Source: Verrucomicrobiota bacterium
GTDB lineage: Bacteria; Verrucomicrobiota; Verrucomicrobiia; Chthoniobacterales; UBA10450
Assembly (NCBI GenBank): GCA_003218975.1
Contig: QHPD01000098.1
Location: 11,880-75,879, forward strand
Direction: 5' to 3'
DNA length: 64,000 nt
Below, piece by piece: positions 382 through 35,083 of the stretch (positions are counted from its first letter, which is position 1; each line of letters begins with the position of its first letter). Below the pieces are notes generated by a model. That model did no database searches and had not been told where the DNA came from. It saw only the letters and a list, made by a program, of their open reading frames with translations. The translations under genes were made by a program, and so were the position numbers.

Positions 382-1416
382 ATGCACGGCGCGTTTTATC
401 AATCGGAAGCTGATCAGCCGCACCCAAGCCGGGCGCGGGCAATCATCAAAGCGCATCCGGAGGTTCGCCGGTTAATGACGCGCAATCCGTGGACTGCTCA
501 CATTGCCGTCTCAATCGTCATCCTGCAAACAGCGATCGCGTACGGAATGGGCACGCTTGGATTTGGTTACTGGTGGCTCAGTGTGCTCATCGCTTTTTGC
601 ATCGGCGCGTTCGCCAATCACGCCAACTACGTCATCATTCATGACGCGACACATAACCTGATTTTTCGGAACGCAAGCTGGAACAAAATGGTGGCCATCA
701 TAGCCGACCTTCCAAACCTCACTCCCGGCGCAATGGGATTTCGGGTTTATCACTTAAAACATCACTCGCACCAGGGCGACTATCAATATGATGCTGATCT
801 GGCGAATCATTGGGAGGCGCGACTGGTAGGCAATAAATGGTATCGGAAGGCGATTTGGCTCATGCTGTTTCCATTTTTTCAAGTGACCCGTCCGCCTCGG
901 CTGAAAGCGGTCAAGATGTGGGATCGGTGGTTCTTCATCAATTTCGCATGCGCAGCGGCTTATGATGCAGCGGTTGTTTATTTTTGCGGCTTGCCCGGGT
1001 TTCTTTATCTCGTATTCGCGTTTTTCTTTTCGATCGGCTTGCATCCGGTAGGTGCTCGCTGGATTCAGGAGCATTACACCTACGATTTCGACCAGGAGAC
1101 GTTCAGTTATTACGGACCAATCAATCGAGTGGCCCTAAACATGGGCTATCACAACGAGCACCATGATTTGCCGTCGATCCCATGGAACAAACTTCCGAAA
1201 TTGCGCGCCATGGCGCCGGAATTCTACGATAATCTGAAGTATCACACCTCATGGAGCCGATTGCTGTTGCAGTTTATTTTTGACAAGCGATACAGCCTCT
1301 ATTCGCGCGTTGAACGAATGAGAGAATCCAGCGACTGCGCGACTCAACCGGCTCCAGACACGACAACCAGTCAGAATGGCAGTCTTGATCTCAGTGCGAG
1401 GCCAATTAAGTTCTAA
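382..1416 (+). CDS. membrane fatty-acid desaturase family, sphingolipid (dihydroceramide) Delta4-desaturase-like
   Basis: Three His boxes (HDATHN, HLKHHSH, HNEHHDLPSIPW). The N-terminal segment (QPHPSRARAIIKAHPEVRRL) resembles the Lipid_DES domain of DEGS enzymes. Multiple TM segments. Confidence 0.8.
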   Translation: MHGAFYQSEADQPHPSRARAIIKAHPEVRRLMTRNPWTAHIAVSIVILQTAIAYGMGTLGFGYWWLSVLIAFCIGAFANHANYVIIHDATHNLIFRNASWNKMVAIIADLPNLTPGAMGFRVYHLKHHSHQGDYQYDADLANHWEARLVGNKWYRKAIWLMLFPFFQVTRPPRLKAVKMWDRWFFINFACAAAYDAAVVYFCGLPGFLYLVFAFFFSIGLHPVGARWIQEHYTYDFDQETFSYYGPINRVALNMGYHNEHHDLPSIPWNKLPKLRAMAPEFYDNLKYHTSWSRLLLQFIFDKRYSLYSRVERMRESSDCATQPAPDTTTSQNGSLDLSARPIKF

Positions 1417-1418
1417 TT

Positions 1419-2033
1419 ATGGCGGAGCGGCATTACATTTCGACGAAGAACGAAACCGTTCGAATGTTCAAAAGCGATTTCATGGAGTTTTTCTCACATG
1501 TGCATCCCGCTACGCCTTTGGTCCTCTACTTTCCGGTCGTCGGTTACATGCTTTACCTAGCGTTTTGGCAAAGCCGATTGTCGATTCTGGCCGTGGCCGG
1601 TTTGTTCCTGCTCGGTGTGCTGATCTGGACTCTGCTTGAATACATTATCCACCGGTACGTTTTTCATTATGAACCAAAGACCGCTCTGGGGAAACGATTG
1701 CACTACATTATTCACGGCGTTCATCACGATTATCCCAACGATGCCCGGCGTTTGGTCATGCCGCCGAGCATCAGCATTCCGGTTGCGATCTTATTTTGGG
1801 CGCTCTTTGCCATTAGCCTTGGCCGGTTCGCGCCGGCCCTCTCCGCTGGATTTGGATTTGGCTACGTTTGCTACGACTCGATCCATTACGCGATCCATCA
1901 CTTCGAGATGAAACGGGGGGTGTGGCTTTGGCTGAAACAGTATCATCTCCGCCATCATTACAAAGATGATCACGTTGGATATGGCATCAGCTCCCCGCTT
2001 TGGGATTACGTTTTTGGGACAACGCGGAAATAG
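1419..2033 (+). CDS. fatty acid hydroxylase superfamily, FA2H/Scs7-like sphingolipid alpha-hydroxylase
   Basis: His boxes HRYVFH, HGVHHDYPND..RLVMPP, YDSIHYAIHH, YHLRHHYKD..GYGISSPLWDYVFGT match the FA2H/Scs7 pattern. Starts 3 nt after the desaturase stop. Confidence 0.8.
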   Translation: MAERHYISTKNETVRMFKSDFMEFFSHVHPATPLVLYFPVVGYMLYLAFWQSRLSILAVAGLFLLGVLIWTLLEYIIHRYVFHYEPKTALGKRLHYIIHGVHHDYPNDARRLVMPPSISIPVAILFWALFAISLGRFAPALSAGFGFGYVCYDSIHYAIHHFEMKRGVWLWLKQYHLRHHYKDDHVGYGISSPLWDYVFGTTRK

Positions 2034-2215: not shown

Positions 2216-3496
2216 ATGAGCGGCAATTTGAATCGGCAACTGTCGGCGCAGGAGTTCGACGCGAAACTAAGTCTGGCTGATTTCATAGTAGGCGACAGCG
2301 ATGATCCGCTGGTGCCGCCACTGGCATTTACACAATGGCGCCAAGCCGGTGCCTGGGAGGCCACGCTTTACGAACCGGAGTTGCTCGCCACGGCAGATGC
2401 TCGGACGACGATCAATTACGAAGGGAAACCGCGTTCGGTCATCAATCTTTGCTCATACAATTATCTTGGGCTTGCCAATCATCCTGAGGTGCTGGCTGCC
2501 GCGCACGAGGCGCTCAGGACCCACGGAATGGGGGCATGTGGTTCGCCGTTGCTCTCAGGAATGACCGATCTTCACAGGGAACTGGAACGTCGTGTGGCAA
2601 AATTTCTCGGCCGCGAGGATGCGATGTTGTTTAGCAGTGGCTTCGGTGGTGCGCTCGGAACTATCTCCGGTCTCTTACGCAAGACCGACGTTGCGATCCT
2701 GGATAACCGATCGCACTTGAGCCTGCGCGACGGCGCCGTGCTTTCGCGCTCGCGCGTCGATCGCTTCGAGCACAACGATCCGGCTTCGCTCGATGCAGCG
2801 CTCAGCCGGAGAAAAGGCAAACGGCAGCTTGTCATCGTTGAAGGCATTTATTCGATGGATGGAGATTTTGCCAGTCTGGACGGATTGCTCGACGCCGCCG
2901 AGTCACACCACGCGAGTGTCTTCATTGATGAAGCGCACTCGATGCTGGCCTGCGGGGCACATGGGAGGGGCGCGGCTGAACACTTCGGCGTTGAAGGACG
3001 GATTCCGCTCGTCTACGGCACTTTCTCAAAGGCGTTCGGCGCGCTCGGCGGTTTTGTCACCGGCCCGGTCCAGACATTGGATTACTTGAGATATTACGCG
3101 CATCCCTACGCGTACTCCTGCGCCTTGCCTCCCGCGATCGTCGCCGCGGTTTTGGAGGCGCTGGAAATCGCCGGGCGCGAACCGGGCCTGCGTGATCGGC
3201 TTTGGTCGAACGCGAACTATTTCCGGGAGCACTTGAACGCGATCGGGATCGACACCGGGGCGTCGAGCACTTACATCATGCCGCTCGTTGTCGGCGATCG
3301 GGCACGAATGTACCAATTGGGTCATGAATTGCGCCGCTGCGGCCTCTTCGTCGCGCCGGTTGATTTTCCCGCCGTGCCCGAAGACCGCATCTGTTTTCGC
3401 GCCTGTGTGACGGCCAACCATACACGCGAGGATCTGGACGAAGCGCTCAATATTCTCGAGGACACACTCGTTCCAACAACGCTACAGAACGCTTGA
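2216..3496 (+). CDS. spt: alpha-oxoamine synthase (PLP), serine palmitoyltransferase-like
   Basis: AOS-family pattern with NYLGL, SGFGG, DEAHS and the PLP-lysine context GTFSKAFGALGG. SPT assignment comes from the sphingolipid gene context. Confidence 0.8.
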   Translation: MSGNLNRQLSAQEFDAKLSLADFIVGDSDDPLVPPLAFTQWRQAGAWEATLYEPELLATADARTTINYEGKPRSVINLCSYNYLGLANHPEVLAAAHEALRTHGMGACGSPLLSGMTDLHRELERRVAKFLGREDAMLFSSGFGGALGTISGLLRKTDVAILDNRSHLSLRDGAVLSRSRVDRFEHNDPASLDAALSRRKGKRQLVIVEGIYSMDGDFASLDGLLDAAESHHASVFIDEAHSMLACGAHGRGAAEHFGVEGRIPLVYGTFSKAFGALGGFVTGPVQTLDYLRYYAHPYAYSCALPPAIVAAVLEALEIAGREPGLRDRLWSNANYFREHLNAIGIDTGASSTYIMPLVVGDRARMYQLGHELRRCGLFVAPVDFPAVPEDRICFRACVTANHTREDLDEALNILEDTLVPTTLQNA

Positions 3497-4449
3497 GTGG
3501 GCAGCGTCTGAGCCTAATGCCGGAACAAATCGAGTCAGCGCCCACTCTCGAGGCCACTTACAAGGCACCCGAGGTCGAGGGAGTGCTCGATCTCTATTTT
3601 TATCGGCCAATAGGATTCCGGCTGGCTCAGTTTTTCGAGAGGCTCAAAATGACACCGGCAGGCGTGACTTTGTTCGCCGGCCTCTTCGGAATCGTTGCGG
3701 GTCATCTCTATTTTTATCGGAATTTGCGCGTCAACATCGTGGGGATGGCACTCCACGTTTGCGCTAATGCGCTCGACAACGCCGACGGTCAGCTCGCCCG
3801 CCTGACTCATCGCGAGACCCGCGAAGGCCGCATTATTGACAGCCTTGCCGATCACATTGGCTTCCTGAGTATTTACGTCCATTTGACTCTCCGTTACCTC
3901 GCCGAGGGTTCATCGCCTGCAATCTGTCTTGTTGCTATGGCGGCCGGGATCAGTCACGCATTGCAAGGCGCCGCGGCTGATTATTACCGCAGCACGTATC
4001 TTTATTTTGTCACGAACCGAGCGCGCATGGGATTGGATTCCGCCGCTGTTCTGCGATCCGATTACCAGGAGCTAAGTTGGCGTTCCAAGCCCTGGAACAA
4101 GTTCCTGCTCGCATTGTATTTGAACTTTACTCGCCAACAGGAAATGCTTGCGCCGCAGCTGAAAAAGTTGCGCGATGCAACCAGCCAACTGTTCCACGGT
4201 GAAATCCCAGACTGGTTAAGGACGCGTTATCGAAACCTAGCGAGCCCGACGTTGAAATGGTGGGGTCTCTTGATGACGAACTCACGGATGTTGGTTTTGT
4301 TTGCTTTGCTGTTCATCGGCCAGCCGATTTACTATTTCTGGTTCGAACTCATCCCGCTTAATCTTCTGCTCGTCTATCTGATTACTCGCCAGGAACACAT
4401 GGCTGAATCGCTGTTGGAAGTTACCGAGCAATGGGGAAATTCCGCGTAA
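3493..4449 (+). CDS. CDP-alcohol phosphotransferase family membrane protein
   Basis: Perfect D-x2-DG-x2-AR-x8-G-x3-D-x3-D motif (DNADGQLARLTHRETREGRIIDSLAD). Polytopic. Start overlaps the spt stop (TTGA); an ATG at 3517 is the alternative start. Confidence 0.85.
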   Translation: MSGQRLSLMPEQIESAPTLEATYKAPEVEGVLDLYFYRPIGFRLAQFFERLKMTPAGVTLFAGLFGIVAGHLYFYRNLRVNIVGMALHVCANALDNADGQLARLTHRETREGRIIDSLADHIGFLSIYVHLTLRYLAEGSSPAICLVAMAAGISHALQGAAADYYRSTYLYFVTNRARMGLDSAAVLRSDYQELSWRSKPWNKFLLALYLNFTRQQEMLAPQLKKLRDATSQLFHGEIPDWLRTRYRNLASPTLKWWGLLMTNSRMLVLFALLFIGQPIYYFWFELIPLNLLLVYLITRQEHMAESLLEVTEQWGNSA

Positions 4450-4464: not shown

Positions 4465-5595
4465 GTGTCGAATATTGAAGTTTCAGAAGTCGGCTCGCGC
4501 CGGGATCGCGATGCGTTCATCAAATTTCAATGGCAAATTTACGCCAATGATCCGGCGTGGGTTCCGCCGTTAATCATCGAGCGAAAGGCCTTCCTCGACC
4601 GCAAGCGGCATCCGTTTTACCAGCACGGTGACGCCGCATTGTTTCTCGCGCGGCAAAACGGTGAAATCGTTGGCCGGATCATGGCGAGCGATGATCCGAA
4701 TTACAATTCGCTGCACGAGACGAATGTCGGTTGTTTTGGACTCTTCGAATGCGTGAATGACCGTGACATAGCTGCTGCGCTCTTTGATGCGGCGACCGCT
4801 TGGCTGCGAAAAAAAGGCCGAAGCGAGATCATGGGCCCGATCGATTATTCAACCAATTATGTCTGCGGCCTGTTGATCGACGGATTCCAGTTTCCCCCCA
4901 CGATCTTGACCGCGCATAATCCGCCGTACTACAGAGAGCTGATCGAGAGCTGCGGCTTCACAAAAGTCAAAGATTGGTACGCGTGGTGGTTCGCTGATCC
5001 GTCAAGAGCCGTGGTGCATTTGCGGCAACTCGCCGCGCGGTTTCGCAGGCGCTGGCCTGTCACGATTCGCCCGGCTAATCTCAAAAATCTCCGCGACGAA
5101 AGCAGACGGCTTCGCGAAATCTACAATCAAGCGTGGGAAAAAAACTGGGGCTTTGTTCCCTTTACCGAGGCTGAGTTCGATCACCTCGCGCACGAGATGA
5201 AGCCGCTCATCGTGCCGCAGGCAACGTTGCTCGCGGAAATTGGCGACAAGCCGGTCGGCTTCGTCATCGGCGTGCCCGACATCAACGTCGCCCTCCGGCG
5301 GATCAACGGACGATTGACCCGTTTTGGTTTTCCCATCGGCTTGATCAAATTGCTGTTCTACAAGCGACGCATCCGAAAAGGCCGCCTGATTGCTCTAGGT
5401 GTAGTCGAGAAATATCGTCGTGCCGGAATCGCCGAGATGCTGGTGTTACGCGTAATGGAAGAAACAATGGTCAAACGGGGGTTCACCGGCGAACTAAGCA
5501 TGACGCTCGAGGACAATTTTATGATCAACCGTTTCCTCGAAGCGATCGGCGCGCGGCGTTACAAAACGTATCGCACCTATGGCAAGAATCTGTAG
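4465..5595 (+). CDS. GNAT-fold N-acyltransferase, candidate bacterial ceramide synthase
   Basis: C-terminal GNAT motif A region (LIALGVVEKYRRAGIAEMLV) and a two-lobed, about 376 aa architecture. The ceramide-synthase role is inferred from context only. Confidence 0.5.
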   Translation: MSNIEVSEVGSRRDRDAFIKFQWQIYANDPAWVPPLIIERKAFLDRKRHPFYQHGDAALFLARQNGEIVGRIMASDDPNYNSLHETNVGCFGLFECVNDRDIAAALFDAATAWLRKKGRSEIMGPIDYSTNYVCGLLIDGFQFPPTILTAHNPPYYRELIESCGFTKVKDWYAWWFADPSRAVVHLRQLAARFRRRWPVTIRPANLKNLRDESRRLREIYNQAWEKNWGFVPFTEAEFDHLAHEMKPLIVPQATLLAEIGDKPVGFVIGVPDINVALRRINGRLTRFGFPIGLIKLLFYKRRIRKGRLIALGVVEKYRRAGIAEMLVLRVMEETMVKRGFTGELSMTLEDNFMINRFLEAIGARRYKTYRTYGKNL

Positions 5596-5626: not shown

Positions 5627-6730
5627 TCAGCGGTCGCGCTCGCCGCGGATGAATTGCTCAACGCAGCGATAGGCTTCGTCGTCGGTCATTTGCACGGGCG
5701 GATGCTTGGAGAAGTATGCGGAAGCCGAATGCAACACGCCGCCGATGCCGCGATCGAGTGCGAGCTTGCAGCAGCGGACGGCGTCGATCGCTACGCCGGC
5801 CGAGTTTGGCGAATCTTCCACCGAAAGTTTCACGTCGATTTCCATTGGCACATCGCCAAAGAGTCGGCCTTCCACGCGGATGAAGGCAATTTTGTTGTCG
5901 AGCTGCCACGGTACGTAATCGCTCGGGCCAATGTGGATATTTTCATCCGCCAGACGCTCGCTCATCACAGATTGGACGGCTTCGGTCTTTGAAGTTTTCT
6001 TCGACGCTAGCCGGGTGCGATTGAGCATGTTCAGGAAATCGGTGTTGCCGCCAGTGTTCAACTGATAGGTACGCACCATTCTAACGCCGCGCTTGCGAAA
6101 AAGGTCCACCAGCGCCCGATGCAGGATGGTGGCGCCCATTTGCGCTTTGATGTCGTCTCCGATGACCGGCAAATTTCTGTCGGCAAAACGCTTTGCCCAT
6201 GTTGGATCGCTCGCGATGAAAACAGGGATGTTATTGACGAAACCAAGTCCGGCTTCCAACGCGCAGCTGGCGTAGAAGCGGGTCGCCTCCTCCGAGCCAA
6301 CCGGGAGATAATTGACCATCAGCTCTGCGGAGGAGTTCTTCAATTCGGCGATGATCTGTTCGCGAGTGGATTCTTTCTCCAGCGGCAGGAACGTGCGCAA
6401 CGGGTCCTGGTCGCGCATGTGAGGAGCGAATCCGTCCAAAACGCAGCCCATTTTCACGATGGCTCCTGTGAGTTTGACCTTGTCGCAGAAAACCTTTGTG
6501 CAATTGGGCGGCGAAAAAATCGCCTTACTCACGTCAAGACCGACTTTACGCCTGTCAATGTCAAAAGCAGACACGACTTCGATATCGCCCGGCCGGTACG
6601 AGGCGATCTGGCGATGCATCAACCCGATGCCAGTGTCGTTGGCTGAGGAGCCGTCATAAAAATTTATCCCCTGAACAAGAGAGTTGGCGCAGTTTCCAAC
6701 CCCAACGATGGCGATTCTTATTTTTCTCAT
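5627..6730 (-). CDS. ino1: myo-inositol-1-phosphate synthase (inositol-3-phosphate synthase)
   Basis: N-terminal Rossmann signature KIRIAIVGVGNCANSLVQGI. Length and overall pattern are typical of bacterial/archaeal MIPS. Confidence 0.85.
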   Translation of the reverse strand: MRKIRIAIVGVGNCANSLVQGINFYDGSSANDTGIGLMHRQIASYRPGDIEVVSAFDIDRRKVGLDVSKAIFSPPNCTKVFCDKVKLTGAIVKMGCVLDGFAPHMRDQDPLRTFLPLEKESTREQIIAELKNSSAELMVNYLPVGSEEATRFYASCALEAGLGFVNNIPVFIASDPTWAKRFADRNLPVIGDDIKAQMGATILHRALVDLFRKRGVRMVRTYQLNTGGNTDFLNMLNRTRLASKKTSKTEAVQSVMSERLADENIHIGPSDYVPWQLDNKIAFIRVEGRLFGDVPMEIDVKLSVEDSPNSAGVAIDAVRCCKLALDRGIGGVLHSASAYFSKHPPVQMTDDEAYRCVEQFIRGERDR

Positions 6731-13312: not shown

Positions 13313-14584
13313 ATGGAGAACATCCTGCCAATCATAATCGCGGATGCACCCGAGGCGTTGATTGAATTGTGCGGCGTGAACTTACTCGAACGTCTGCTCC
13401 GCATTTTACAACGGCTCGGATTTCGCCACGCGGTTGTTTTTTCGACCACGCCGGAAATCGTCGGAGGTGAATTAGCGAAGCGCTCATGGCCGCGCGAACA
13501 AGTAATTGTCCATCTCGTCTCAGGCACAGTTGGATCCCTTACTGCCCAGCTGCTTTTAGAACAAAGACCGTCCGAGCGCTTCTTAATAGTACCAGCAAAC
13601 ATTTATTGTGACGCTCGTTTGCTTGCCGCCCTCTGCGCGAAAAATTCATCCGCCGCGCTTATCGATTCAAATCCACCGGAATTCGCGCGATCTTTAGTCC
13701 GAAATCCGTGTGGGCCGGTCTTGGTCACAAGGGATTTTCTCCTTGCATTTTCACCCGCCGCGCCGCTTTTTGAGGAACTCAAAAACAAGATCGACTACCG
13801 CAAGATCGATGTCGTCGACACAGCGGAGGAAGACGATTACATCGTCAGCATGCGTCGGCGCGTGCGGCCACTTTGTTTCCCGGTGTCGGCGGAGCAGGAC
13901 TGTCGCCTGGCTGAGCGTGTCATTCTTGATTCCGCCCAAAAGGGAACGCTCGACTTGCCGGCTTACATCCACGGACCGATCGAAACGCGAATCATCTCAC
14001 TTCTTTGCAAAACGCGAATCACGCCGAACCAAATTACGATTGCGGGTTTCATCATCGGAAGCAGCGCTACGGCGGCATTTGCGGTTGGCCGTATCGGACT
14101 CGGAATCCTCGCTGCTCTGACTTTTGGTATCGTCGATGGACTCGACGGGAAGCAGTCGCGCGTCAAAATTGAAACGACCGAGCGCGGCAAGTGGGAACAT
14201 CATCTCGATTATCTCATCGAGAATTCGTGGTGGGCGGCTATCGCCTTTTATTTGTGGCGAAGCGGCCAGTTTCCAAACGTGTTCTATTTTTTCGCTTTGC
14301 TCGTCGGATCGCACTTGTTAGATGAATTCGCGAAACGGCGGGCCAAGACCGTAAAAGGCCGCCTGCTCGATGACGTTACGCCATTCGACCGAGCTTTCCG
14401 GCTGATCGCGGCTCGGAGAAACGTTTACGTTTGGATGCTGGCGTGCGGTTTTTTGCTAGGCGCTTTTCCGCAGAGTTACGCGTTCATCTGTGGATGGGCT
14501 GCCTTCAGTGCTGCCATTCATCTCGTCCGTTCCCTCTGGATTTGTAACGCGCACGGACCGCACGTTATTGATTCGCGGACTTGA
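13313..14584 (+). CDS. fusion of a nucleotidyltransferase-like domain and a CDP-alcohol phosphotransferase-like membrane domain (IPCT/DIPPS-like architecture, divergent motifs)
   Basis: The N-terminal about 200 aa have a GT-A/NTP-transferase-like pattern but lack the G-x-G-x-R loop. The C-terminal polytopic domain has DGLDGKQSR-x8-G, but the distal Asp pair is displaced (GKWEHHLDYLIE). Confidence 0.6.
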   Translation: MENILPIIIADAPEALIELCGVNLLERLLRILQRLGFRHAVVFSTTPEIVGGELAKRSWPREQVIVHLVSGTVGSLTAQLLLEQRPSERFLIVPANIYCDARLLAALCAKNSSAALIDSNPPEFARSLVRNPCGPVLVTRDFLLAFSPAAPLFEELKNKIDYRKIDVVDTAEEDDYIVSMRRRVRPLCFPVSAEQDCRLAERVILDSAQKGTLDLPAYIHGPIETRIISLLCKTRITPNQITIAGFIIGSSATAAFAVGRIGLGILAALTFGIVDGLDGKQSRVKIETTERGKWEHHLDYLIENSWWAAIAFYLWRSGQFPNVFYFFALLVGSHLLDEFAKRRAKTVKGRLLDDVTPFDRAFRLIAARRNVYVWMLACGFLLGAFPQSYAFICGWAAFSAAIHLVRSLWICNAHGPHVIDSRT

Positions 14585-21022: not shown

Positions 21023-21030
21023 TCGGCAGA

Positions 21031-22278
21031 TTAATTTCCGGATGTGCTCCTCTTAAGAGAATCGTAAATGTGCGTAACTTTCTCAAAAACATCGTCCACT
21101 GTGATTGCTTGCATGCAAAGATTGTTGCGGCAGACCGATTGCCGGTTGTTGTAGGCGTTTACGCACGGACTGCACGCGATGCCGGCCCACAGCGCCGTCG
21201 CGTTTGGCGATCGCGCGGCAAATAGCGCCGGTGTCTCCGGCCCGAACAACGTGACGACGCGAATCGGCGTCATCGAGGCAAAATGAGCCGGGCCACTGTC
21301 ATTCGTCACCAAAATCTCACTGCGGGTGTAAAGCACGAGCACCTGCCGCAGAGTCGTTTTTCCGGCAAGCCGGATGACGCGATCCGAACCGACCTCGTCC
21401 GCAAGCCGGTTGTTAGGAGCGGCTTCGGCCGGGGCACCTGTAAATCCGATAAATAAATCCGAATAACGTTCGAGCAACCGCCGCGCAAGCTGGACATAAC
21501 GCAGAGGCGGCCACCGCCTAAGCGGCAGCAAGTCGCTCGCGTTCGGGTTGAGCAGAATGAGCGGCGCAGAACCGATGCGAGGATTTTCGCGTTGTAGCAG
21601 GGCATTGATTTCAGCAACTTCGGACAGGGAGGGCCGAAATCCTGCAAGTGGCTGGTTTGCAGCAGGCGTAAAGTCGAACGTCGGGAGCACCGACGGATCG
21701 CGGGTCAGTGATTCAACCATGGCTTCGAACATCTGACTCGTATGGAGATGAGGATTGTACAAAAGCCGGTGCGTCATTAAGTCGCCGCGGTACGGTCCGT
21801 CGCCAAAAAAAGTATGAAAGCCAACACGCGATTTGGCACCGGTCGTAAACGTCAGTATCGCGGAGAAACGTGTCAGAAATTCCATATCAACGACCGCGTC
21901 GATGCCGATTTTTCGGACCCGGAGCACCGCTCGCAGCGCACCAGCCGCGAGTCCGAAGAGACTCTTCGTCGCGATCGTTATCACATTTCCATTGGGAATA
22001 ATTTCCATCGTGTCGAGAATGAAGCGATTGTCTTCGAATACGACGAAGTAAACGTTTTCACGTCCAACCATTTTGATTGCACGACGAATTGCGGGATAGG
22101 CGAGAACGGTTGAGCCCTGCTCCGCGAACTTGACGAAGAGAATGCGCTGAACTTGGCGCGGTCCTGGCCGCCCCGCGGATTCAAAGATTCTTCTGAGAAG
22201 GGTTAAAATGGCGCAAAGCGGCGCACCAACCCAGCGATCGGTGCGTTGCAAAGTTAGAATGCTTGCCGGGAGATCCAT
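21031..22278 (-). CDS. glycosyltransferase family 9 (heptosyltransferase-like)
   Basis: GT9 pattern: RRWPPLRYVQLARRL, GAPAEA, LAGKTTLRQVLVLYTRSEILVTNDSGPAHFAS. Confidence 0.8.
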   Translation of the reverse strand: MDLPASILTLQRTDRWVGAPLCAILTLLRRIFESAGRPGPRQVQRILFVKFAEQGSTVLAYPAIRRAIKMVGRENVYFVVFEDNRFILDTMEIIPNGNVITIATKSLFGLAAGALRAVLRVRKIGIDAVVDMEFLTRFSAILTFTTGAKSRVGFHTFFGDGPYRGDLMTHRLLYNPHLHTSQMFEAMVESLTRDPSVLPTFDFTPAANQPLAGFRPSLSEVAEINALLQRENPRIGSAPLILLNPNASDLLPLRRWPPLRYVQLARRLLERYSDLFIGFTGAPAEAAPNNRLADEVGSDRVIRLAGKTTLRQVLVLYTRSEILVTNDSGPAHFASMTPIRVVTLFGPETPALFAARSPNATALWAGIACSPCVNAYNNRQSVCRNNLCMQAITVDDVFEKVTHIYDSLKRSTSGN

Positions 22279-22435
22279 TTTCTGGCCCTCCTAAGATGGT
22301 CAATCTTTACGAAAAAATTTTGGCGGTCCGAGCAGTCGATTGTAGCGTCGAGGCGATATGAGCGCGAACGTTAGTTTAGGCTCCGGCTGCATCGAGCATA
22401 TTTCTGGCGAAAAATGAATCAACGCGCTCTTTTTC

Positions 22436-24022
22436 ATGGTGTATAACTTCGAAATCGCCCAAGCCCCTGACCGGCTTCGGGCGGAGTCAGCGAGCACAAC
22501 GCAAATTGCGCTCGAGGTTGCGCCGCCGGCAGCGGATGCACCAGCGCGTGTAGACGAAACCGGAGTGGAGCTAAAACGCGGCGCGTTCTTGAACACGATC
22601 GCGATGTTGGCTTCGAATTTCCGCGGGATATTCACGTTTCTCGTTGCGCGACTGCTCGGACCGGCGGCACTCGGCATATTCTCCGTTGCCTGGTCGACGA
22701 CTGACATCATCAGCAAGATCGGTGTTCTTGGCCTCGACAATGCGATCACCACGTTCATCGCGCGCTCGGAGGCCGTGGGCGACCGCGCGAGAAGCAGGGC
22801 GCTTTTTCGAATCGCTGTAGTGCTCGGGGTTGCGCAGTCCATTATCACTGCCGTCGTTGTGATACTGGGCCTCCGGTTTTTTAACAACCGTCTTCATATA
22901 CAGCCGCAGATGGTTTCGGCGCTTGCGCTCGTTCTTTGCGCGATGCCAGGTCTGGCTCTGTATCGCATCAGTACCGCTATCTCGCGGGGGATGAAAGTGA
23001 TGCAACACGACATCTACTCACGCGGGATGATGGAACCAATTGCAACGACACTCGCCTTCCTCTTTGCAGTTGCCGTCGGCTTTAAGCAGTCCTCACCGGA
23101 AGTGGCTGCAATTGTTGGGACAGCAGCGTCAGGACTTATTGCACTCGCGCTCGCTTCAACGTTGTTTCGACATGTTCCCCCGCAAAGGGAAGTTGTTTCC
23201 CCTTTCGGCGAAGCACGGTCGCTACTCGCGTATTCGGCTCCCATCAGCATTTATCAACTGATTAACGCGTTCATCGCCCGGTTGGACCTTCTCATGCTCG
23301 GTTACTTCGTTGGACGCGCACCCGGTGTGACGCTTGCAACCGTCGGTGTTTACAGTGCAGTGATCGGCACAGCGAACGGGCTGCGAAAAGTGAACCAGGC
23401 TTTCAACCCCATTTTCGCACCGGTAGTAGCCGGTATGACCGCGACAGGCGATCACGAAATCGCTGCGGCCACATATGCTCGGCTTGCCCAGTGGATGCTC
23501 TGGATATTGTTGCCGCTGGTGGCAGTGATGTCCCTCGCGGGCAGCACGATTTTGCTCATCTACGGTCCAGCATTTTGGCAGGGCGGAGTTTGGCTCGGCA
23601 TCGTCGCTCTTGCCAGTGCTATCAATGCATTTGTGGCATTAGGCGAAACGGTAATCATGGTGCAACGGCCACATTTAAATCTTCTGCATTCTTCGATTAC
23701 ATGCACGGTCGCGGCTGCGGGGCTTCTCTGGTTAATTCCGCGCTTCGGCGTGATGGGTGCGGCTTTTGGTATCCTTTTGCCCTATGTCGTTCAAGGCATT
23801 CTACGCTATGCGACGCTGCGATGGGTCTTTCACTGGAAAGATTCATGGAGTGACATTCGGCCGCCGCTGATCGCTGCGGGAATTGCGCTCGTTCCCACGC
23901 TCGTCTGCAGATTGTTCCTGGGTGGAATTGCCGGGCAAGTCATCAGCGCTGCGGCTTTTCTGGCAGTATTTGGTGTTCAGTGGTTGCAGCACCATATCCA
24001 TCGCAAGGACGAACGTCCTTAA
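22436..24022 (+). CDS. MOP-superfamily oligosaccharide/lipid-linked glycan flippase (Wzx/polysaccharide biosynthesis protein-like)
   Basis: About 14 TM segments and the Polysacc_synt-like N-terminal pattern (GAFLNTIAMLASNFRGIFTFLVARLLGPAALGIFSVA). Confidence 0.75.
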   Translation: MVYNFEIAQAPDRLRAESASTTQIALEVAPPAADAPARVDETGVELKRGAFLNTIAMLASNFRGIFTFLVARLLGPAALGIFSVAWSTTDIISKIGVLGLDNAITTFIARSEAVGDRARSRALFRIAVVLGVAQSIITAVVVILGLRFFNNRLHIQPQMVSALALVLCAMPGLALYRISTAISRGMKVMQHDIYSRGMMEPIATTLAFLFAVAVGFKQSSPEVAAIVGTAASGLIALALASTLFRHVPPQREVVSPFGEARSLLAYSAPISIYQLINAFIARLDLLMLGYFVGRAPGVTLATVGVYSAVIGTANGLRKVNQAFNPIFAPVVAGMTATGDHEIAAATYARLAQWMLWILLPLVAVMSLAGSTILLIYGPAFWQGGVWLGIVALASAINAFVALGETVIMVQRPHLNLLHSSITCTVAAAGLLWLIPRFGVMGAAFGILLPYVVQGILRYATLRWVFHWKDSWSDIRPPLIAAGIALVPTLVCRLFLGGIAGQVISAAAFLAVFGVQWLQHHIHRKDERP

Positions 24023-24909
24023 TCCGAAGCGAAGACATCCCAGGCGTCCCCGAAGAATGCGATCGTTTCGTTGTTGTGGTACTGACGTCCGTCAGGAACA
24101 TCGTGCAGCGATAAGGTCCGGCGTTGCCGAAACACACTCCGCATCATGGCCGATGCGGGCACAACATATCTCTTCACGTTACGCCTAGCGAGGCATCCAC
24201 TGATCCAAATATCGTCCATGTAAAATGCTCCCTGCGGCGCTTGAGAATAATCCCAGAGCGATTCGTCGAAAAATCTCGGTTGAATTAAGTAACTTCCGCA
24301 CCCTGTGATCACCGCCACGGGTTGCGGCTGGCGAAGCTCTCGCGCGCGAATCATCCTGGCGTGCCGCCAATCCAGACCTTGCGGGATCGCTGCACCGCGA
24401 AAGCATAAGGCCGCTGCAGGTAGTTGCTCGTTGTAATAGAGATATGTTTCAAGCGCATCTCGCGGATAAACGCGATCATCGTCCACAACCATTATCAATG
24501 TATTGCCCCGGCCCGCCGCCAGTTCTTCTCGAACGACGGGGATAAACTTCGTGGCCGGTCCCCAATCCCTGCGACATTCCAGGACACGCATTCGCGGCCA
24601 ACGCGAAACATCTTTCGGCACTGCATAAGGCCGTTGCTCCCGAGTCGAAAATTCCGGTATGGCCAGGACGATCTCATCCGGCGGCGACGTCTGTCTCAGC
24701 AGAGAGCGAACCGTCGGCCCCAGGTTGCCGATCCGCTCTGGTACCGTCGAAAGCGAAACAATCACACGGCGATCGCCGGATTTCTTGCTGCTTGCCAAGG
24801 TTTCACGGATGAAACGGACTTGTCGCCGATGCTTTCTACTACCAGGAAGCAGACGCTTGAGACCGAGCACACCCAAAATGACAAGGGCCGCGCAAATCAG
24901 CGGAAACAT
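24019..24909 (-). CDS. membrane-anchored GT-A fold glycosyltransferase
   Basis: N-terminal TM anchor, SLSTVPERI...SLLRQTSPPDEIVLAIP, DWGPATKF, and DxD-type motif VVDDDRVYP. Family not assignable by eye. Confidence 0.55.
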   Translation of the reverse strand: MFPLICAALVILGVLGLKRLLPGSRKHRRQVRFIRETLASSKKSGDRRVIVSLSTVPERIGNLGPTVRSLLRQTSPPDEIVLAIPEFSTREQRPYAVPKDVSRWPRMRVLECRRDWGPATKFIPVVREELAAGRGNTLIMVVDDDRVYPRDALETYLYYNEQLPAAALCFRGAAIPQGLDWRHARMIRARELRQPQPVAVITGCGSYLIQPRFFDESLWDYSQAPQGAFYMDDIWISGCLARRNVKRYVVPASAMMRSVFRQRRTLSLHDVPDGRQYHNNETIAFFGDAWDVFASD

Positions 24910-25021
24910 GGGGACAAGATCGACATCGTATGATCAGAGAATTTTTCGAGATGACACGGATAACAATTACACTCACTCACGAGACTGTCTTGCAGCAGCC
25001 TGACAGTTAAAATACGAATCA

Positions 25022-26545
25022 ATGGCCGAACAGCAACGAATGCGCTGGTCTATGGCCTCAACCGAGATGGAACAGAGCGATTCCGGCCAACAATCCGTGA
25101 TTAAAGCCGTGCTGCTTTTTTTCGCCGCTTTCGCGCTTTACTTTTTCACGCATTCGCCGGCGCTCGATGAAATCGATGCTGTGCAATTTGCGATGGGCGT
25201 GCGCTCGTTCGACCTCTGGCATCACCAGCCGCACCCACCTGGTTATCCGCTTTTTATTTTCTTTGGCTGGCTGGGCACGAGATTTTTCCACATCGGAACC
25301 GAATCATCGCTTTACTGCGCTTCGGCGTTTGGCGGTGCACTTTTCATCGCGGCTTGGTTCTCGATTATTCGCGTCCAGTTTTCCGAAAGGCTCGCATGGT
25401 GGGTCGCAAGTTGTTTGCTGATCACGCCAGTTGTTTGGATGACGGCTACGAAGGCGGTGACGGACATGCTGGCAGCTGGTCTCGTGGGCGCGGAGTTACT
25501 TGCCGCGATCTGCTTTTTGAAACAGGGGAAGCGCGGCCTGATTGTTTGGGCTGCTCTCCTTGGGGCCGCCGCAGCTGGGACACGGCCGCAATTGTTTCCT
25601 GTCGTTGCAGTGGTTCTTGGCATTCAGCTCAAGAAAGGCTGTGTAAATGCTAAAACATGGTGGTTTGCGTACGCGGTGCTGGTCGCGGGTTGTCTAACCT
25701 GGCTTCTGCCTATGTGGTACATGCAGTCTCAATTGCGTCCAAATGAGCCGTTCTGGCGTGTGTATCCCGAGCTCGCGTACGGCCAATGGCGCTGGCGCTT
25801 AAACCTGCCGTCCGTTTACATCGGGGCGGGCGATTGGAGTCCTCACTACCTCGGAATGCGGTTCGTCAGGCACATTCTCGGGTGGTTTTGGAAAGGGTTC
25901 GGCTTCATTCAATCGCCTCGGGTGCTTGCAGCCGGTATCGTTCTTACAACGTGTGCGATCATCGCTTATTTTCGGTTCGGACGCGAAGCGATCGATCAGC
26001 GATTTTGGAGATTTCACGGTCCCTGGCTCTTAGTTGACATTGCGATTGTCTTTATCGCGCTTCCCGGCGATCAAAGATACTATCTCATGGTCTTTCCGCC
26101 GCTCTTTGTCATAATGCTCCGCGGTTTTTTACGATTACCAAAACCGTGGAACTTGTCGGCAATCTGCGTTCCGGCATTGCTCCTGTATATCCTCGTTCCA
26201 TTGGCCATAGAGAATCACCGTGATGAAGCGCCAGCAGTCCGGTTCGTACGCTATTTGGAAAAACTTTATCCGCCCTCGAAGCGCGGCAACGTGCTCTTGA
26301 TTCTACCTGTTGTGTACCGTTCCGCCCAGTGGTACGCGCCGCAATTCAAAATATTGGACCATGTCCCCATCGCGGAGGACGAAGAAGTGCTACGGAATGC
26401 GGCAGCGGTTTATACCGACGATCTATCCCTCAAGCGGAAAGATTTTTACTTGATAAAGCTCGCCGAGTTCAGACGCTCAATGTTGATTTACCCTCAGAAT
26501 CGCCGTGTCCGACTTTATCTTGTCGAACGGCGCCGCTCCTCATGA
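25022..26545 (+). CDS. GT-C-like membrane protein of the DUF2723/TMEM260 type
   Basis: Polytopic. N-terminal loop ALDEIDAVQFAMGV...HPPGYPLFIFFGW resembles the DUF2723 signature. Confidence 0.6.
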   Translation: MAEQQRMRWSMASTEMEQSDSGQQSVIKAVLLFFAAFALYFFTHSPALDEIDAVQFAMGVRSFDLWHHQPHPPGYPLFIFFGWLGTRFFHIGTESSLYCASAFGGALFIAAWFSIIRVQFSERLAWWVASCLLITPVVWMTATKAVTDMLAAGLVGAELLAAICFLKQGKRGLIVWAALLGAAAAGTRPQLFPVVAVVLGIQLKKGCVNAKTWWFAYAVLVAGCLTWLLPMWYMQSQLRPNEPFWRVYPELAYGQWRWRLNLPSVYIGAGDWSPHYLGMRFVRHILGWFWKGFGFIQSPRVLAAGIVLTTCAIIAYFRFGREAIDQRFWRFHGPWLLVDIAIVFIALPGDQRYYLMVFPPLFVIMLRGFLRLPKPWNLSAICVPALLLYILVPLAIENHRDEAPAVRFVRYLEKLYPPSKRGNVLLILPVVYRSAQWYAPQFKILDHVPIAEDEEVLRNAAAVYTDDLSLKRKDFYLIKLAEFRRSMLIYPQNRRVRLYLVERRRSS

Positions 26546-27342
26546 AACGCATTTTCATCACCGGAGCGAGCTCGGGCATTGGCCTGGCCATTGCTAAACT
26601 ACTGGTGGCAGAGGGTCACGAAGTTTGGGGCACATCGCGCAATTTGGAACGCGTCCCCAAAATGCCGCGATGTCATCCAATGCGTCTCGATCTGACCGAT
26701 CCGCTTTCCATCGAGCAGGCATTCAATGCCGCGCTTGCGGAAGCTCGCTATTTCGACGTCTTGATCAACAACGCCGGGGCCGGACACTTTGGGGCCGCCG
26801 AGTTCCTTCCCGTGAAAACGATCGCAAGCCAGTTTCAAATTCTCGTTTTCGGCCAAATCCAATTGATGCAACTCGCGCTTCGCCACATGCAAGCGCGTGG
26901 AGACGGTTTGATCATCAACGTCAGTTCGTTAGCTTCTCGCCTTCCAGTGCCTTTCATGGCGGCTTACAACTCCGCGAAAGCAGCGCTGGCAGCCTTTACC
27001 ATGTCGATCCAGCTCGAGTTGGCTCATTCCCCGCTCCACATCGTTGATCTTCAACCGGCAGACATTTCCACGGAATTTAACGAGAGGGTGCGCAAGACCA
27101 ATAAAACGGATCGCTACGAGGCAAGGATCACCAAGACCTGGGAAATCGTCGAACGCAACATGAAAAAGGCGCCAAGCCCGGATCTCGTCGCGCGACATGT
27201 TCTCAAATTGATCGACGCTGTGCACCCGCCGCCCCAGATAACGGTGGGCAACGTATTTGAATCAAAAATTGCACCGCTGATTTTTAGATTTCTTCCCCAG
27301 CGCGTCCGCCTTTGGGGCCTACGGAGATATTACGAAATATGA
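26542..27342 (+). CDS. classical short-chain dehydrogenase/reductase, candidate 3-ketosphinganine reductase
   Basis: TGASSGIGLA, NNAG and the YNSAKAA catalytic triad region. ATGA overlap with the upstream gene (26542-26545). The reductase role is inferred from context only. Confidence 0.85.
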   Translation: MKRIFITGASSGIGLAIAKLLVAEGHEVWGTSRNLERVPKMPRCHPMRLDLTDPLSIEQAFNAALAEARYFDVLINNAGAGHFGAAEFLPVKTIASQFQILVFGQIQLMQLALRHMQARGDGLIINVSSLASRLPVPFMAAYNSAKAALAAFTMSIQLELAHSPLHIVDLQPADISTEFNERVRKTNKTDRYEARITKTWEIVERNMKKAPSPDLVARHVLKLIDAVHPPPQITVGNVFESKIAPLIFRFLPQRVRLWGLRRYYEI

Positions 27343-28178
27343 CGGCGATCTTTGAAGCTGTGATTTTGATGGCCGGACAGGGCTCGCGCCTGCGTGAGTC
27401 GGATAAAACTTTCTTGAAGCCGTTCGTGCCGGTCCTTGGCCGTCCGTTGATTTCGTACACGCTAGATGCCCTGATGCGCGCAGGGATCAAAACCGTCAAC
27501 TTCGTGGTCGGCTACGAAAGCGGGCGCATGATCGCGCAAGCCAACCGGCTGATTCCTTCCGGCCTCAGCGTGTCCTTCATCGAAAACCGCGACTGGCAAA
27601 AACAGAATGGCATCTCGCTTCTTGCCGCCGCTGGGCACGTCGGCAAGTCCTTTCTTCTGACGATGAGCGACCATTTGTTTGATCAATCAATTGTCGACCT
27701 TCTGCTCCATAATGCGGTACCCAACCAACTCAATCTCGCGCTCGACCGAAAGCTGGATTCAATTTTTGATGTCGATGACGCGATGAAAGTTCAGACTCAG
27801 GCGGACCGAATCCTCAAGATTGGAAAAGACTTAACGGTTTACGATGGAATCGATACCGGTCTTTTTGTATGCTCACTAGACATTTTCGATTACCTCGAGC
27901 GAGTAAAACGTGACGGAGATTGCAGTCTTGCTGACGGAGTTCGATTGATGGCGTCGGAGGACAAAGCCCGCGCCGTCGATATTGGAGATGCCTGGTGGCA
28001 GGACATCGACACCATCGCAATGCTGCAATGCGCTGAGACGCAATTACGATCGCGGCTCGCGCGTCACGACATCGCCAGCGCCAATGCTGGATCTGGTCGC
28101 GGCAATCGCGCTGGGAACCAGGCTCGCGCCCGCGACAATCGTCCACAGGTGCAGGATCCAGTCAGCCAGGCCGAGTAA
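27339..28178 (+). CDS. sugar/alcohol-phosphate nucleotidyl(cytidylyl)transferase
   Basis: Canonical loop ILMAGQGSRL..K.F. ATGA overlap with the SDR stop (27339-27342). The last about 45 codons are low-complexity and overlap the convergent gene. Confidence 0.8.
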   Translation: MTAIFEAVILMAGQGSRLRESDKTFLKPFVPVLGRPLISYTLDALMRAGIKTVNFVVGYESGRMIAQANRLIPSGLSVSFIENRDWQKQNGISLLAAAGHVGKSFLLTMSDHLFDQSIVDLLLHNAVPNQLNLALDRKLDSIFDVDDAMKVQTQADRILKIGKDLTVYDGIDTGLFVCSLDIFDYLERVKRDGDCSLADGVRLMASEDKARAVDIGDAWWQDIDTIAMLQCAETQLRSRLARHDIASANAGSGRGNRAGNQARARDNRPQVQDPVSQAE

Positions 28179-28751
28179 TGCGAGTATAAGAAAAACGGCG
28201 AGAGCCATGTCGCGTTTAGTCAGCTGAAAGAGCCACCACACAAATCGGTCGCCAAGATTGAGCAAACCGGAATGTGAGATCATTCCGCGATGTCTCGTAT
28301 AAAATGACTCGTGCAAAGTGGACAAAGCAACCGAACTTTTGCTCTTGCCCACTCGTAGGAGCAGCTCGTTGGCCGTAATCAGGACAGCGCACACAACTCC
28401 TTCACTCGAACGGCGAAGCCCCAACCCGAGCGCGAGAACATAGAGAAGGCTTGCTGCAAAATCGCAAAAGTAATCCAGTCGTTCCCCGAGTTTTGATTCC
28501 AACTTTTTGGCGCGCGCGATTTCGCCGTCGCAACCATCAAGAATACTGAACACTTGAAAAATGGCTGCGCCGATGACGACGCTGACGTAATCGCCGCGTA
28601 CCAAAAATACAGAGGCAATTAGCGGTAAAACAAAGATCGATATCGTCCACGCGTTAGGGTGAATCGGAAACTTGAGCAGAAAACGCGTTATCCGCCGCGA
28701 AATCGGCCGGTTCAAAAACCGCGAAACTAGACCGTCTTGAGGTTTGCTCAT
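28044..28751 (-). CDS. CDP-alcohol phosphotransferase family membrane protein
   Basis: Perfect motif DGCDGEIARAKKLESKLGERLDYFCD. About 6 TM segments. Confidence 0.85.
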   Translation of the reverse strand: MSKPQDGLVSRFLNRPISRRITRFLLKFPIHPNAWTISIFVLPLIASVFLVRGDYVSVVIGAAIFQVFSILDGCDGEIARAKKLESKLGERLDYFCDFAASLLYVLALGLGLRRSSEGVVCAVLITANELLLRVGKSKSSVALSTLHESFYTRHRGMISHSGLLNLGDRFVWWLFQLTKRDMALAVFLILALLGLADWILHLWTIVAGASLVPSAIAATRSSIGAGDVVTREPRS

Positions 28752-35000: not shown

Positions 35001-35083
35001 TCCCACGCCGCTTCCGGCGACGCTCCGATGTGCAGCGATACGCGCGGCGAATGTAGTTCAGGTTTGCTGCGCGCTCGGGGCAT
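32036..35083 (-). CDS. addB: AddB-like helicase-nuclease subunit B (PD-(D/E)xK)
   Basis: About 1000 aa partner ORF coupled to addA. C-terminal RIDLI...VVDYKTG nuclease motif. The ORF is open to 35128; ATG 35083 was chosen. Confidence 0.65.
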   Translation of the reverse strand: MPRARSKPELHSPRVSLHIGASPEAAWENVVRHWFEKIAARALEDQQPAAVVTASRSQAYFFRSRLLREGKSLVAVKFLSPPQLRELLRRHCDLQVPLREHLRLLLAVTAEQFTSKSSGDETLPVAKSIARDPDRFLHAIDQLRAAGWTFDEIDSPALREIATRFEEQVRECGFTFGYDADRVVLADARKFQPLFSNLLVFGFDAAHWPLWPLLHAATLSAGETSVVLSNPRDAACDLDETWIGTWEETFGPAEVIPLTNGRATASVTETLPVPASNVHFVIGRDTTQQARAIVALAAKFLADPRCERLGILFSGPGALARLVATFLQSAGIVHNDAIAHLAPSAFDDDAWRAWLELQQTPRLKPLFRFLRATEGQTFDELSVLQIQETLCRGYKNVLIDDIELLRDYCESSPELRHGNAVARELQKIRFLPESASLAEFLSQTRAIFSKLGWKERWNEVERFSRSWRDRLSTKFSKNSYLRWLRELLGAPSLERDDLGAHPYARVHLLASTDAEGQPWSHLIFAGLNDEAWPGFDGELAFVRDEQIEDLNRQNTTLNRRASKRGRQGEGHWSVRERKTLLLGPKEQRQIRRRQLLSLVESVSEAIGASASLYSEATPSRIANPSEFFSWIYFNAHSRGVSQQTLHSLEERTRDWLKDWSPADAQKVDSINVGRTRYAFDARRRLRPAGEYEFALRSPANEQKSLRVTQWEQALRCPAIVWMEIFLGVAPDDYNGDAWAGATGQWVHRWLADSVRNGGVRKFVEVNRADEIRQRISQEARELREHVAALCARRSKVLPDWWRSGWSNALYIADCLAAKVSDLHDWSEMAVEWPLGEPTLIPLSVNETLRVRGRIDLILARRKSQQSQIGYEDFWVVDYKTGRQRGFNLKELRRNDTPKRKFHKQLIEGRGVQLALYALAVHARGAEDVQLTLLSPAEQLEPQFHLADVLAQKDFWKELHRMQETGVFGMLGPIHADFGFVRRYPLATLPIDMDLLAEKWTLTHPAFVLEEEEQAK

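Follow-up and report, generated by a model that had tools for sequence, protein, structure and literature searches.

The 64,000-nucleotide stretch of Verrucomicrobiota DNA analyzed here (contig QHPD01000098.1, positions 11,880 to 75,879; hereafter the window; ~55% G+C) carries two converging genes, one for a putative cytidylyltransferase of the inositol-1-phosphate cytidylyltransferase (IPCT) type, NTPT, and one for a CDP-alcohol phosphotransferase related to DIPP synthase (DIPPS), CDPOH1 (Table 1). By the names given to near-identical homologues, the window falls in Verrucomicrobia near Candidatus Udaeobacter. An original prediction, made from the letters of the stretch, had proposed both open reading frames (ORFs) together with their signature motifs, and both are real genes. 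Pfam recognizes NTPT as NTP_transf_3 (2.9e-12) and NTP_transferase (5.2e-10) and CDPOH1 as CDP-OH_P_transf (1.1e-10), independent gene calls on three soil-metagenome contigs reproduce both overlapping genes, and full-length homologues number in the hundreds. The NTPT motif LMAGQGSRL occupies residues 10-18 and fits the G-x-G-x-R-L loop near the N-terminus. The CDPOH1 motif, DGCDGEIARAKKLESKLGERLDYFCD, had been called perfect, and it is an exact fit to D-x2-D-G-x2-A-R...G-x3-D-x3-D.

The 3' ends of the two genes overlap, as had been predicted. This overlap is real but unconserved and incidental, because relatives space the two ends differently, from 46 nt apart to overlapping by 72 nt, and a few have gaps of more than 1 kb that hold an intervening gene. 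Among 120 close homologues of NTPT, 27 end at 260 aa, 19 aa sooner than the window protein. The last ~35 residues of NTPT are an antisense reading of the last helix of CDPOH1; they are predicted to be disordered and are modeled with a predicted local distance difference test (pLDDT) score of ~30. The catalytic domain covers ~aa 1-240, and the tail at ~aa 245-279 is probably non-functional read-through. On the variable spacing, the shorter homologues and the disordered tail we rejected a functional role for the overlap, and no conserved role for it is found among the relatives.

Table 1. Features of the window, with the gene pair first and the other genes after it (window coordinates).
Feature	Position	Strand	Details
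NTPT, IPCT-like cytidylyltransferase	27339..28178	+	ATG at 27339; 279 aa; soluble (predicted)
CDPOH1, six-helix CDP-alcohol phosphotransferase, AF2299/DIPPS lineage	28044..28751	-	235 aa
CDPOH1 catalytic motif DGCDGEIARAKKLESKLGERLDYFCD	28461..28538	-	D72, D75, D93, D97
Convergent 3' overlap of NTPT and CDPOH1	28044..28178	.	135 nt
CDPOH2, second CDP-alcohol phosphotransferase, perfect motif	3493..4449	+	318 aa; between Spt and GNAT genes
MIPS, myo-inositol-phosphate synthase	5627..6730	-	TIGR03450 4.5e-130; Pfam Inos-1-P_synth
SDR, 3-ketodihydrosphingosine/oxo-ceramide reductase-like	26539..27342	+	NF049977 8e-48, below cut-off
Sphingolipid delta-4-desaturase-like	382..1416	+	Pfam Lipid_DES, FA_desaturase
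Fatty-acid hydroxylase	1419..2033	+	Pfam FA_hydroxylase
Spt-like alpha-oxoamine synthase, serine palmitoyltransferase candidate	2216..3496	+	NF047600/NF047599 ~1e-95, below cut-offs
GNAT-domain protein, ceramide-synthase candidate (inferred)	4465..5595	+	Pfam Acetyltransf_1
CDPOH3, third CDP-alcohol-transferase-like copy	13313..14584	+	423 aa; degenerate motif DGLDGKQSR, D3/D4 region altered

NTPT was matched to IPCTs by profile, by sequence and by fold. In NCBIfam it is matched best by the IPCT half of NF041135 (1.5e-34, as compared to 3.7e-21 for the second family); the score of 119.8 bits stands against a cut-off of 580 that was set for the whole bifunctional Thermococcales protein and is unsuited to a stand-alone domain. 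The top three PDB sequence matches are the A. fulgidus IPCT 2xme (9e-20), the A. fulgidus IPCT-DIPPS fusion 4mnd, and 4jd0, the stand-alone IPCT of T. maritima. The AlphaFold (AF2) model of NTPT, of moderate quality (pLDDT 71), has a Rossmann-like core, and Foldseek returns the same three structures at its head, in the order 4jd0, 2xme and 4mnd, which are all of the solved IPCTs. When 58 positions were defined by a conservation of at least 85% across the IPCT domains of 18 fused IPCT-DIPPS proteins, NTPT was identical at 46, and the remainder were mostly conservative changes. The prediction that this gene product is IPCT-like is therefore supported by NF041135 rank, by the three solved structures and by the conserved positions.

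The lineage of CDPOH1 was traced in the same manner. NCBIfam assigns the protein to the DIPPS half of NF041135 (7e-21), and its AF2 model (pLDDT 92.6) comprises a juxtamembrane helix and six transmembrane (TM) helices. Foldseek ranks AF2299 above the A. fulgidus IPCT-DIPPS and the latter above the PIP synthases (PIPS), followed by CPT1/CEPT1, PgsA and PS synthase. A profile of the CDPOH1 family agrees with this order (AF2299 2e-46, A. fulgidus DIPPS [AfDIPPS] 9e-35, PIPS 1e-8), and the PIP synthase model NF045883 gives CDPOH1 32.1 bits against a cut-off of 170. In a neighbour-joining tree CDPOH1 falls among Verrucomicrobial proteins, whose clade joins Sphingomonad and Gemmatimonadota sequences and stands beside the fused IPCT-DIPPS clade; CDPOH2 forms a separate clade. 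The DIPPS-like membrane enzyme that had been proposed is thus upheld, its AF2299/DIPPS lineage being recovered by NCBIfam, PDB-sequence, profile and fold comparisons, and the phylogenetic placement that had been suggested as a check puts CDPOH1 next to the fused enzymes. Most Verrucomicrobial, Sphingomonad and Gemmatimonadota relatives of CDPOH1 are 370-430 aa long and carry an N-terminal extramembrane domain (~160-190 aa), as does AF2299. The window protein lacks this domain and begins at the juxtamembrane helix (MSKPQDG...), 102 nt from the upstream helicase gene; the domain has been lost in the Udaeobacter lineage.

The residues of CDPOH1 were interpreted through roles taken over from work on PIP synthases (PMC6506517, PMC4634129). 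The pocket for the donor substituent lies between the juxtamembrane helix and TM2, and is polar in AF2299 and DIPP synthase but hydrophobic in PIP synthase (Clarke et al. 2015). K3, D6, G7, S10, N14, R15 and S18, together with DGCDGE, are identical in the Verrucomicrobial CDPOH1 clade and in the fused IPCT-DIPPS proteins. The donor-side residues of CDPOH1 are common to AF2299 and AfDIPPS, whereas the PIP synthases differ there. Because the DIPPS/AF2299 residues are kept, the polar donor side argues for a soluble CDP-polyol as the likely donor, rather than CDP-diacylglycerol (CDP-DAG).

The acceptor side has taken a different course. MtPgsA1 holds inositol-phosphate through R94, directly after the fourth motif Asp (D4), S132/Y133, R152/R155 of RxxR, and R195 (PMC6506517, PMC4634129); R94 and the pocket were described by Grave et al. 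2019, and mutagenesis of R155, R195 and S132 was by Clarke et al. 2015. In our alignments the acceptor elements D-R, S/A-Y, R-D-x-R and a TM6 Arg are present in a MIPS-adjacent fused DIPPS, in AfDIPPS and in AF2299 (DRYxD, A-Y in TM4, RDFR and TM6 RR), and the first three are present in the PIP synthases. At these positions CDPOH1 has F98 (variable in its clade), N128-E129 and R180-D181-M-A183, and the aligned TM6 Arg is absent. The replacement extends to the Verrucomicrobial, Novosphingobium and Gemmatimonadota relatives of CDPOH1. The clade also has a ~30-residue insertion between TM4 and TM5, in which Y151, R153, H154, S161, G162, G167, W173, Q176, T178 and K179 are conserved, and a WILH motif on TM6. 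Judged by the loss of these four inositol-phosphate acceptor elements, CDPOH1 is neither a DIPP synthase nor a PIP synthase, the Arg after D4, S-Y, the second RDxR Arg and the TM6 Arg all being missing. Since the inositol-phosphate pocket is lost, a hydroxyl that carries no phosphate is the most likely acceptor.

Compared with the known IPCT/DIPPS systems (A. fulgidus, Thermococcales; EC 2.7.7.74 / 2.7.8.34; 2xme, 4mnd; NF041135) and the T. maritima IPCT, the pair shows a mixture of likeness and difference. The NTPT fold and conserved positions are shared, as are the CDPOH1 motif DGCDGE-AR, the six helices, the polar juxtamembrane D-G...N-R..S, and the genomic pairing of the two activities with linkage to MIPS. 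The differences are that NTPT and CDPOH1 are separate, convergent and unfused, that CDPOH1 has the TM4-TM5 insertion and lacks the acceptor residues, and that the setting is a mesophile's ceramide pathway rather than the production of a solute. CDPOH1 finds its best match, in sequence and fold alike, in AF2299 (4o6m), a CDP-alcohol phosphotransferase that bound CDP-glycerol (Clarke 2015). The type of N-terminal domain in AF2299 recurs in most CDPOH1 relatives; unlike CDPOH1, however, AF2299 has that cytidylyltransferase-like domain and keeps DRYxD, RDFR and the TM6 RR. PIP synthases (MtPgsA1 6h53, RsPIPS 5d92; NF045883) share the superfamily, the six helices and a place in inositol metabolism, but their donor CDP-DAG lies in a hydrophobic groove and their acceptor inositol-phosphate is held by R94, R155 and R195, whereas CDPOH1 has a polar donor side and is without those arginines.

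These differences bear on whether the pair is simply a split IPCT and DIPP synthase that makes the compatible solute di-myo-inositol phosphate, as in hyperthermophiles. The bifunctional IPCT/DIPPS is the top curated family for both NTPT and CDPOH1, the JGI auto-annotation agrees, and a stand-alone IPCT is known in T. maritima. CDPOH1, however, is without all four inositol-phosphate acceptor elements, the pair lies within a ceramide operon in ~30 genomes, and the host is a mesophilic soil bacterium. We rejected solute synthesis by the pair on the absent acceptor-pocket residues and the ceramide-operon setting, and regard it as very improbable.

The ceramide-operon setting was established from 80 loci of species-representative genomes, searched with the window proteins. 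In ~30 Chthoniobacterales/Udaeobacter genomes the gene order is desaturase, hydroxylase, Spt, CDPOH2, GNAT and CDPOH1, then the convergent NTPT-SDR, a GT2 glycosyltransferase and Wzx, so that GNAT lies directly upstream of CDPOH1. NTPT is always convergent in the 31 Verrucomicrobial rows in which a CDPOH1 orthologue has NTPT within 1.5 kb, and only one contig-end fragment is without NTPT. GNAT, CDPOH2 and Spt upstream, and SDR beside NTPT, are found in nearly all Verrucomicrobial orthologue loci. In the window the SDR stop and NTPT start codons overlap as ATGA, and thus the two genes share an operon. Because a convergent NTPT adjoins nearly every Verrucomicrobial CDPOH1, the gene pair is an integral part of a ceramide operon conserved in Verrucomicrobia.

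The window itself departs from this order. Its segment from ~5.6 to 28.75 kb (GNAT to the helicase gene) appears inverted with respect to ~30 related genomes, which parts CDPOH1, NTPT and SDR from Spt, CDPOH2 and GNAT by 22 kb and sets MIPS beside GNAT. Three other metagenome contigs share the inverted arrangement, and it is therefore not an assembly error. The original prediction had placed MIPS and the ceramide genes in the same cluster as the pair; these genes are in the window (382-6730), but the pair lies 22 kb away, though in relatives the ceramide block is contiguous with it.

Linkage to MIPS is also seen in Sphingomonadales. MIPS lies between a CDPOH1-like gene and the NTPT orthologue in Novosphingobium sp. 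B1, N. lubricantis and N. hassiacum, and Altererythrobacter xixiisoli has CDPOH2-like, CDPOH1-like, MIPS and NTPT genes in one locus, in a different order. The Sphingomonadales module consists of a CDPOH2-like gene, a CDPOH1-like gene with the N-terminal domain, MIPS and a 250-aa NTP-transferase (loci L060 at 6876-12753, L080, L085 at 5411-11206 and L087 at 3516-9041); it often stands beside Wzx-type flippase or GT4 genes and is not adjacent to spt. MIPS also adjoins fused IPCT-DIPPS genes at seven loci. N. acidiphilum makes a lipid resembling phosphatidylinositol (PI)-dihydroceramide without either known cluster (Heaver et al. 2022, PMC9246714). The Sphingomonadales module is a candidate that could explain this lipid; N. 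acidiphilum itself was not identifiable among the family matches, though many named Novosphingobium and Sphingomonas species are present.

With the MIPS linkage added to the profile, PDB, fold and conserved-position evidence, we infer that inositol-phosphate is the best-supported substrate of NTPT. A different head group would follow if NTPT activated phosphoglycerate, glycerol-phosphate, phosphocholine or a sugar phosphate, and CDPOH1 moved it to a sphingolipid. The precedent is in Caulobacter crescentus, where the COG1213-type cytidylyltransferase CpgD and a CDP-alcohol-transferase-domain protein, CpgA, are encoded in one sphingolipid cluster (PMC12275187, PMC11324152). As proposed for our pair, a soluble cytidylyltransferase there makes the CDP-head group and the transferase-domain protein is proposed to load the sphingolipid. 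The head group in Caulobacter is phosphoglycerate (as CDP-glycerate) and the acceptor ceramide phosphoglycerate; a ceramide kinase is involved there, and none was found in the window, and the Caulobacter system has no MIPS. Also consistent with another head group are the CDP-glycerol bound by AF2299, the name 'choline kinase' that JGI gives to many NTPT homologues, and NCBIfam scores that are all below cut-off. Against it, IPCT is far ahead of the rest when NTPT is searched by profile, PDB sequence and fold, with a small fold-level margin over sugar-1-phosphate transferases, NTPT keeps 46 of the 58 IPCT positions, and MIPS is in the window supercluster and lies between both genes in Novosphingobium. 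We consider a different head group quite unlikely.

As to the acceptor, ceramide, diacylglycerol (DAG) and the inositol of another lipid appear equally compatible with the CDPOH1 sequence; ceramide is probably favored by the operon, because the genes are embedded in it. If DAG were the acceptor, CDP-inositol and DAG would give PI in a Kennedy-type synthesis, and ceramide would receive its head group later or never. A published hypothesis takes this form. For B. vulgatus and Prevotella, Heaver et al. 2022 (PMC9246714) suggested, without confirmation, that three genes close to MIPS, coding for an NTP-transferase, a CDP-alcohol phosphatidyltransferase and a HAD hydrolase, act by way of CDP-inositol and then PI to produce PI-dihydroceramide. 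Compared by described gene content, that cluster and ours share the NTP-transferase, CDP-alcohol transferase and MIPS in a sphingolipid context. The lost phosphate-binding acceptor residues suit DAG as well as ceramide, and the position of the Sphingomonadales module away from spt is consistent with PI as the product. Our locus differs, however, in having two transferases inside a ceramide operon, in a different phylum, and no HAD hydrolase, the enzyme that in the published proposal moves the head group of PI onto dihydroceramide. A HAD hydrolase, a PAP2/AUR1-type protein, a ceramide kinase and an extra cytidylyltransferase were sought among the scanned large ORFs of the window and none was found, and the conserved Verrucomicrobial block likewise holds no HAD hydrolase or PAP2/AUR1-type transferase. 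In ~30 genomes, moreover, the genes are embedded among those for ceramide synthesis. Kennedy-type synthesis of PI is, in our estimation, improbable.

Two eukaryotic comparisons concern the transfer to ceramide itself. The eukaryotic inositol-phosphoceramide synthase AUR1 has the product presumed here, but it takes the head group from PI and has an unrelated PAP2-type fold, to which no scanned ORF of the window matches. Ceramide phosphoethanolamine synthase of Drosophila is a CDP-alcohol phosphotransferase with CDP-ethanolamine as donor and ceramide as acceptor. The logic of CDP-head group plus ceramide is the same as that proposed for CDPOH1, and the difference lies in the CDP-ethanolamine.

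A second transferase complicates the assignment of the acceptor. CDPOH2, which had been noted as the other canonical copy and whose perfect motif is real, gives family-profile values of 1.5e-14 for AF2299, 6e-13 for RsPIPS and 2e-6 for AfDIPPS, and is relatively closer to PIP synthases than CDPOH1 is. The suggestion that it could be of PIP-synthase type is favored by this nearer profile but not by the residues, since H or Y rather than Arg follows D4, nor by the PIPS model NF045883, which gives 32.2 bits against a cut-off of 170. Its TM4-TM5 insertion is longer than that of CDPOH1, and carries RTRYR...WW..TNSR where CDPOH1 has YTRHR...WW..TKRD; the fused DIPPS are without this motif. CDPOH1 and CDPOH2 co-occur nearly always in Verrucomicrobia and Sphingomonadales, and this steady pairing suggests sequential steps or a heterodimer.

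The two paralogues could accordingly divide the labor. CDPOH2 would be the CDP-inositol:ceramide transferase, and a further phospho-head group would then be placed by CDPOH1 on the inositol of that product or on a glycan, in an inositol-P-inositol linkage like that of DIPP synthase, or the two would form a heterodimer. The paralogues stand together at nearly every Verrucomicrobial locus and again in the Sphingomonadales module, which is in keeping with this, as are the insertion motif common to both and absent in fused DIPPS, the coupling of CDPOH2 to Spt, and the fact that DIPP synthase chemistry already links inositol-phosphate to an inositol hydroxyl. The sequences do not, however, separate ceramide from an inositol-lipid acceptor, the cluster has only one cytidylyltransferase, and in one Sphingomonas locus the CDPOH1-like gene stands without a CDPOH2 partner. 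Such a division of labor is in our view unlikely.

The reading we prefer is a direct route from CDP-inositol to a lipid. MIPS would make inositol-phosphate, the presumed substrate of NTPT, and NTPT would activate it with CTP to CDP-inositol. CDPOH1 would bind CDP-inositol in its conserved polar donor site, transfer the inositol-phosphate and release CMP. The acceptor would be a non-phosphorylated hydroxyl of a membrane lipid, and the operon points to ceramide, which would yield inositol-phosphoceramide. We consider it fairly probable that the cell forms CDP-inositol and draws on it for the head group of a lipid, whereas the full mechanism, from MIPS through NTPT and CDPOH1 to a lipid that is probably ceramide, has about an even chance of being correct. 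Direct transfer to ceramide by CDPOH1 itself is a tentative proposal, and one that we doubt somewhat more than we believe. The genes, their family relationships, their synteny, the kept donor-side residues and the lost acceptor-side residues are shown here; which head group is activated, which acceptor receives it and how work is split with CDPOH2 are what we infer.

Several findings weigh against this route. NTPT falls under every curated NCBIfam cut-off, its substrate is deduced only from match rank and synteny, and the fold-level gap between IPCTs and sugar-1-phosphate transferases is small for this protein. MIPS is within 10 kb of the pair in only one of ~30 Verrucomicrobial relatives. The acceptor residues of CDPOH1 were mapped by sequence alignment and not on model coordinates. 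The characterized six-helix enzymes of the family mostly use soluble acceptors, and lipid-acceptor enzymes such as CEPT1 carry extra helices (Clarke 2015), whereas CDPOH1 has six. Finally, as CDPOH1 and CDPOH2 are a constant pair, CDPOH2 could be the enzyme that uses ceramide while CDPOH1 serves another acceptor. The CDP-inositol route that had been predicted nonetheless gains from the IPCT-like NTPT, the DIPPS lineage of CDPOH1, the kept donor site, the lost acceptor pocket and the genomic linkage. What it cannot claim is novelty of concept, as a CDP-inositol route was already proposed for Bacteroidetes (Heaver et al. 2022) and similar logic is seen in Caulobacter CpgD/CpgA.

Other features of the window were noted around the pair. 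The third transferase copy, CDPOH3, was missed by the original prediction. Its N-terminal ~200-aa domain resembles a decayed nucleotidyltransferase, and it is convergent, with a 129-nt overlap, with a radical-SAM gene (14456-15766, minus strand). This second convergent pair recurs at about ten Verrucomicrobial loci and one Gemmatimonadota locus (e.g. L008, L014, L016, L020, L021, L024, L028, L032, L079). Udaeobacter-like genomes have, directly upstream of the CDPOH3 gene, a second, long (~415 aa) CDPOH1 paralogue that is absent from the window (L013 at 18394-20704, L030, L031 at 9458-12242, L033, L036 at 10844-12985). Between MIPS and CDPOH3, at 6854-13213, lie genes for two TolC-like outer-membrane proteins, a HlyD-type adaptor, a MacB-type permease and an ABC ATPase, which may form an exporter of the cluster's product.

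Between the inositol and ceramide genes lies a block, at 16086-26545, that is syntenic in relatives. It encodes a PIG-L-family de-N-acetylase (16086-17249), a GT9 heptosyltransferase-like protein, a GT2, a Wzx-type flippase and three PMT_2/GT-C-like membrane glycosyltransferases (17275-19020, 19508-21022 and 25022-26545). This gene set resembles the requirements for a GlcN-inositol-phospholipid glycan, as in glycosylphosphatidylinositol (GPI), glycosyl-inositol-phosphoceramide (GIPC) or phosphatidylinositol mannosides (PIM). Farther along, just past the AddA/AddB-type helicase-nuclease genes that border the pair, is selenocysteine machinery (35058-39852), with SelB at 35058-37052, SelA at 37460-38926 and a SelD-like protein of the AIR-synthase family at 38851-39852. 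dnaA and dnaN are at 49860-52411, which places the region near the replication origin.

A wider proposal, which we put forward as speculative and on balance unlikely, would join these parts. CDPOH1, alone or with CDPOH2, would transfer inositol-phosphate from CDP-inositol to ceramide, and so be a bacterial inositol-phosphoceramide synthase with DIPP synthase as its ancestor and no relation to AUR1 or to the Bacteroides BT_1522 route. Its product would be extended by the 28-kb supercluster (PIG-L deacetylase, three GT-C, GT9, GT2 and the Wzx-type flippase) into a GPI- or GIPC-like outer-membrane glycosyl-inositol-phosphoceramide in Candidatus Udaeobacter, which is among the most abundant of soil bacteria, and the same module would explain the Novosphingobium lipid.

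In fungi, plants and protozoa, inositol sphingolipids hold a central place. Only one bacterial route has been characterized, that of Bacteroides thetaiotaomicron, which passes through PI; a route by way of CDP-inositol has been put forward, though never demonstrated. Our literature search returned nothing on this module in Verrucomicrobia or Sphingomonadales and nothing specific on Verrucomicrobial inositol sphingolipids. The locus described here offers clean candidates, as it lies inside a ceramide operon, with no PI-dependent transferase nearby and with an acceptor pocket that is visibly remodeled. The presence of the same module in cultured Novosphingobium and Altererythrobacter provides tractable strains, and might explain the lipid left unexplained by Heaver et al. 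2022. If the proposed route is true, a solute-making enzyme of hyperthermophiles would have been re-used for membrane-lipid head groups.

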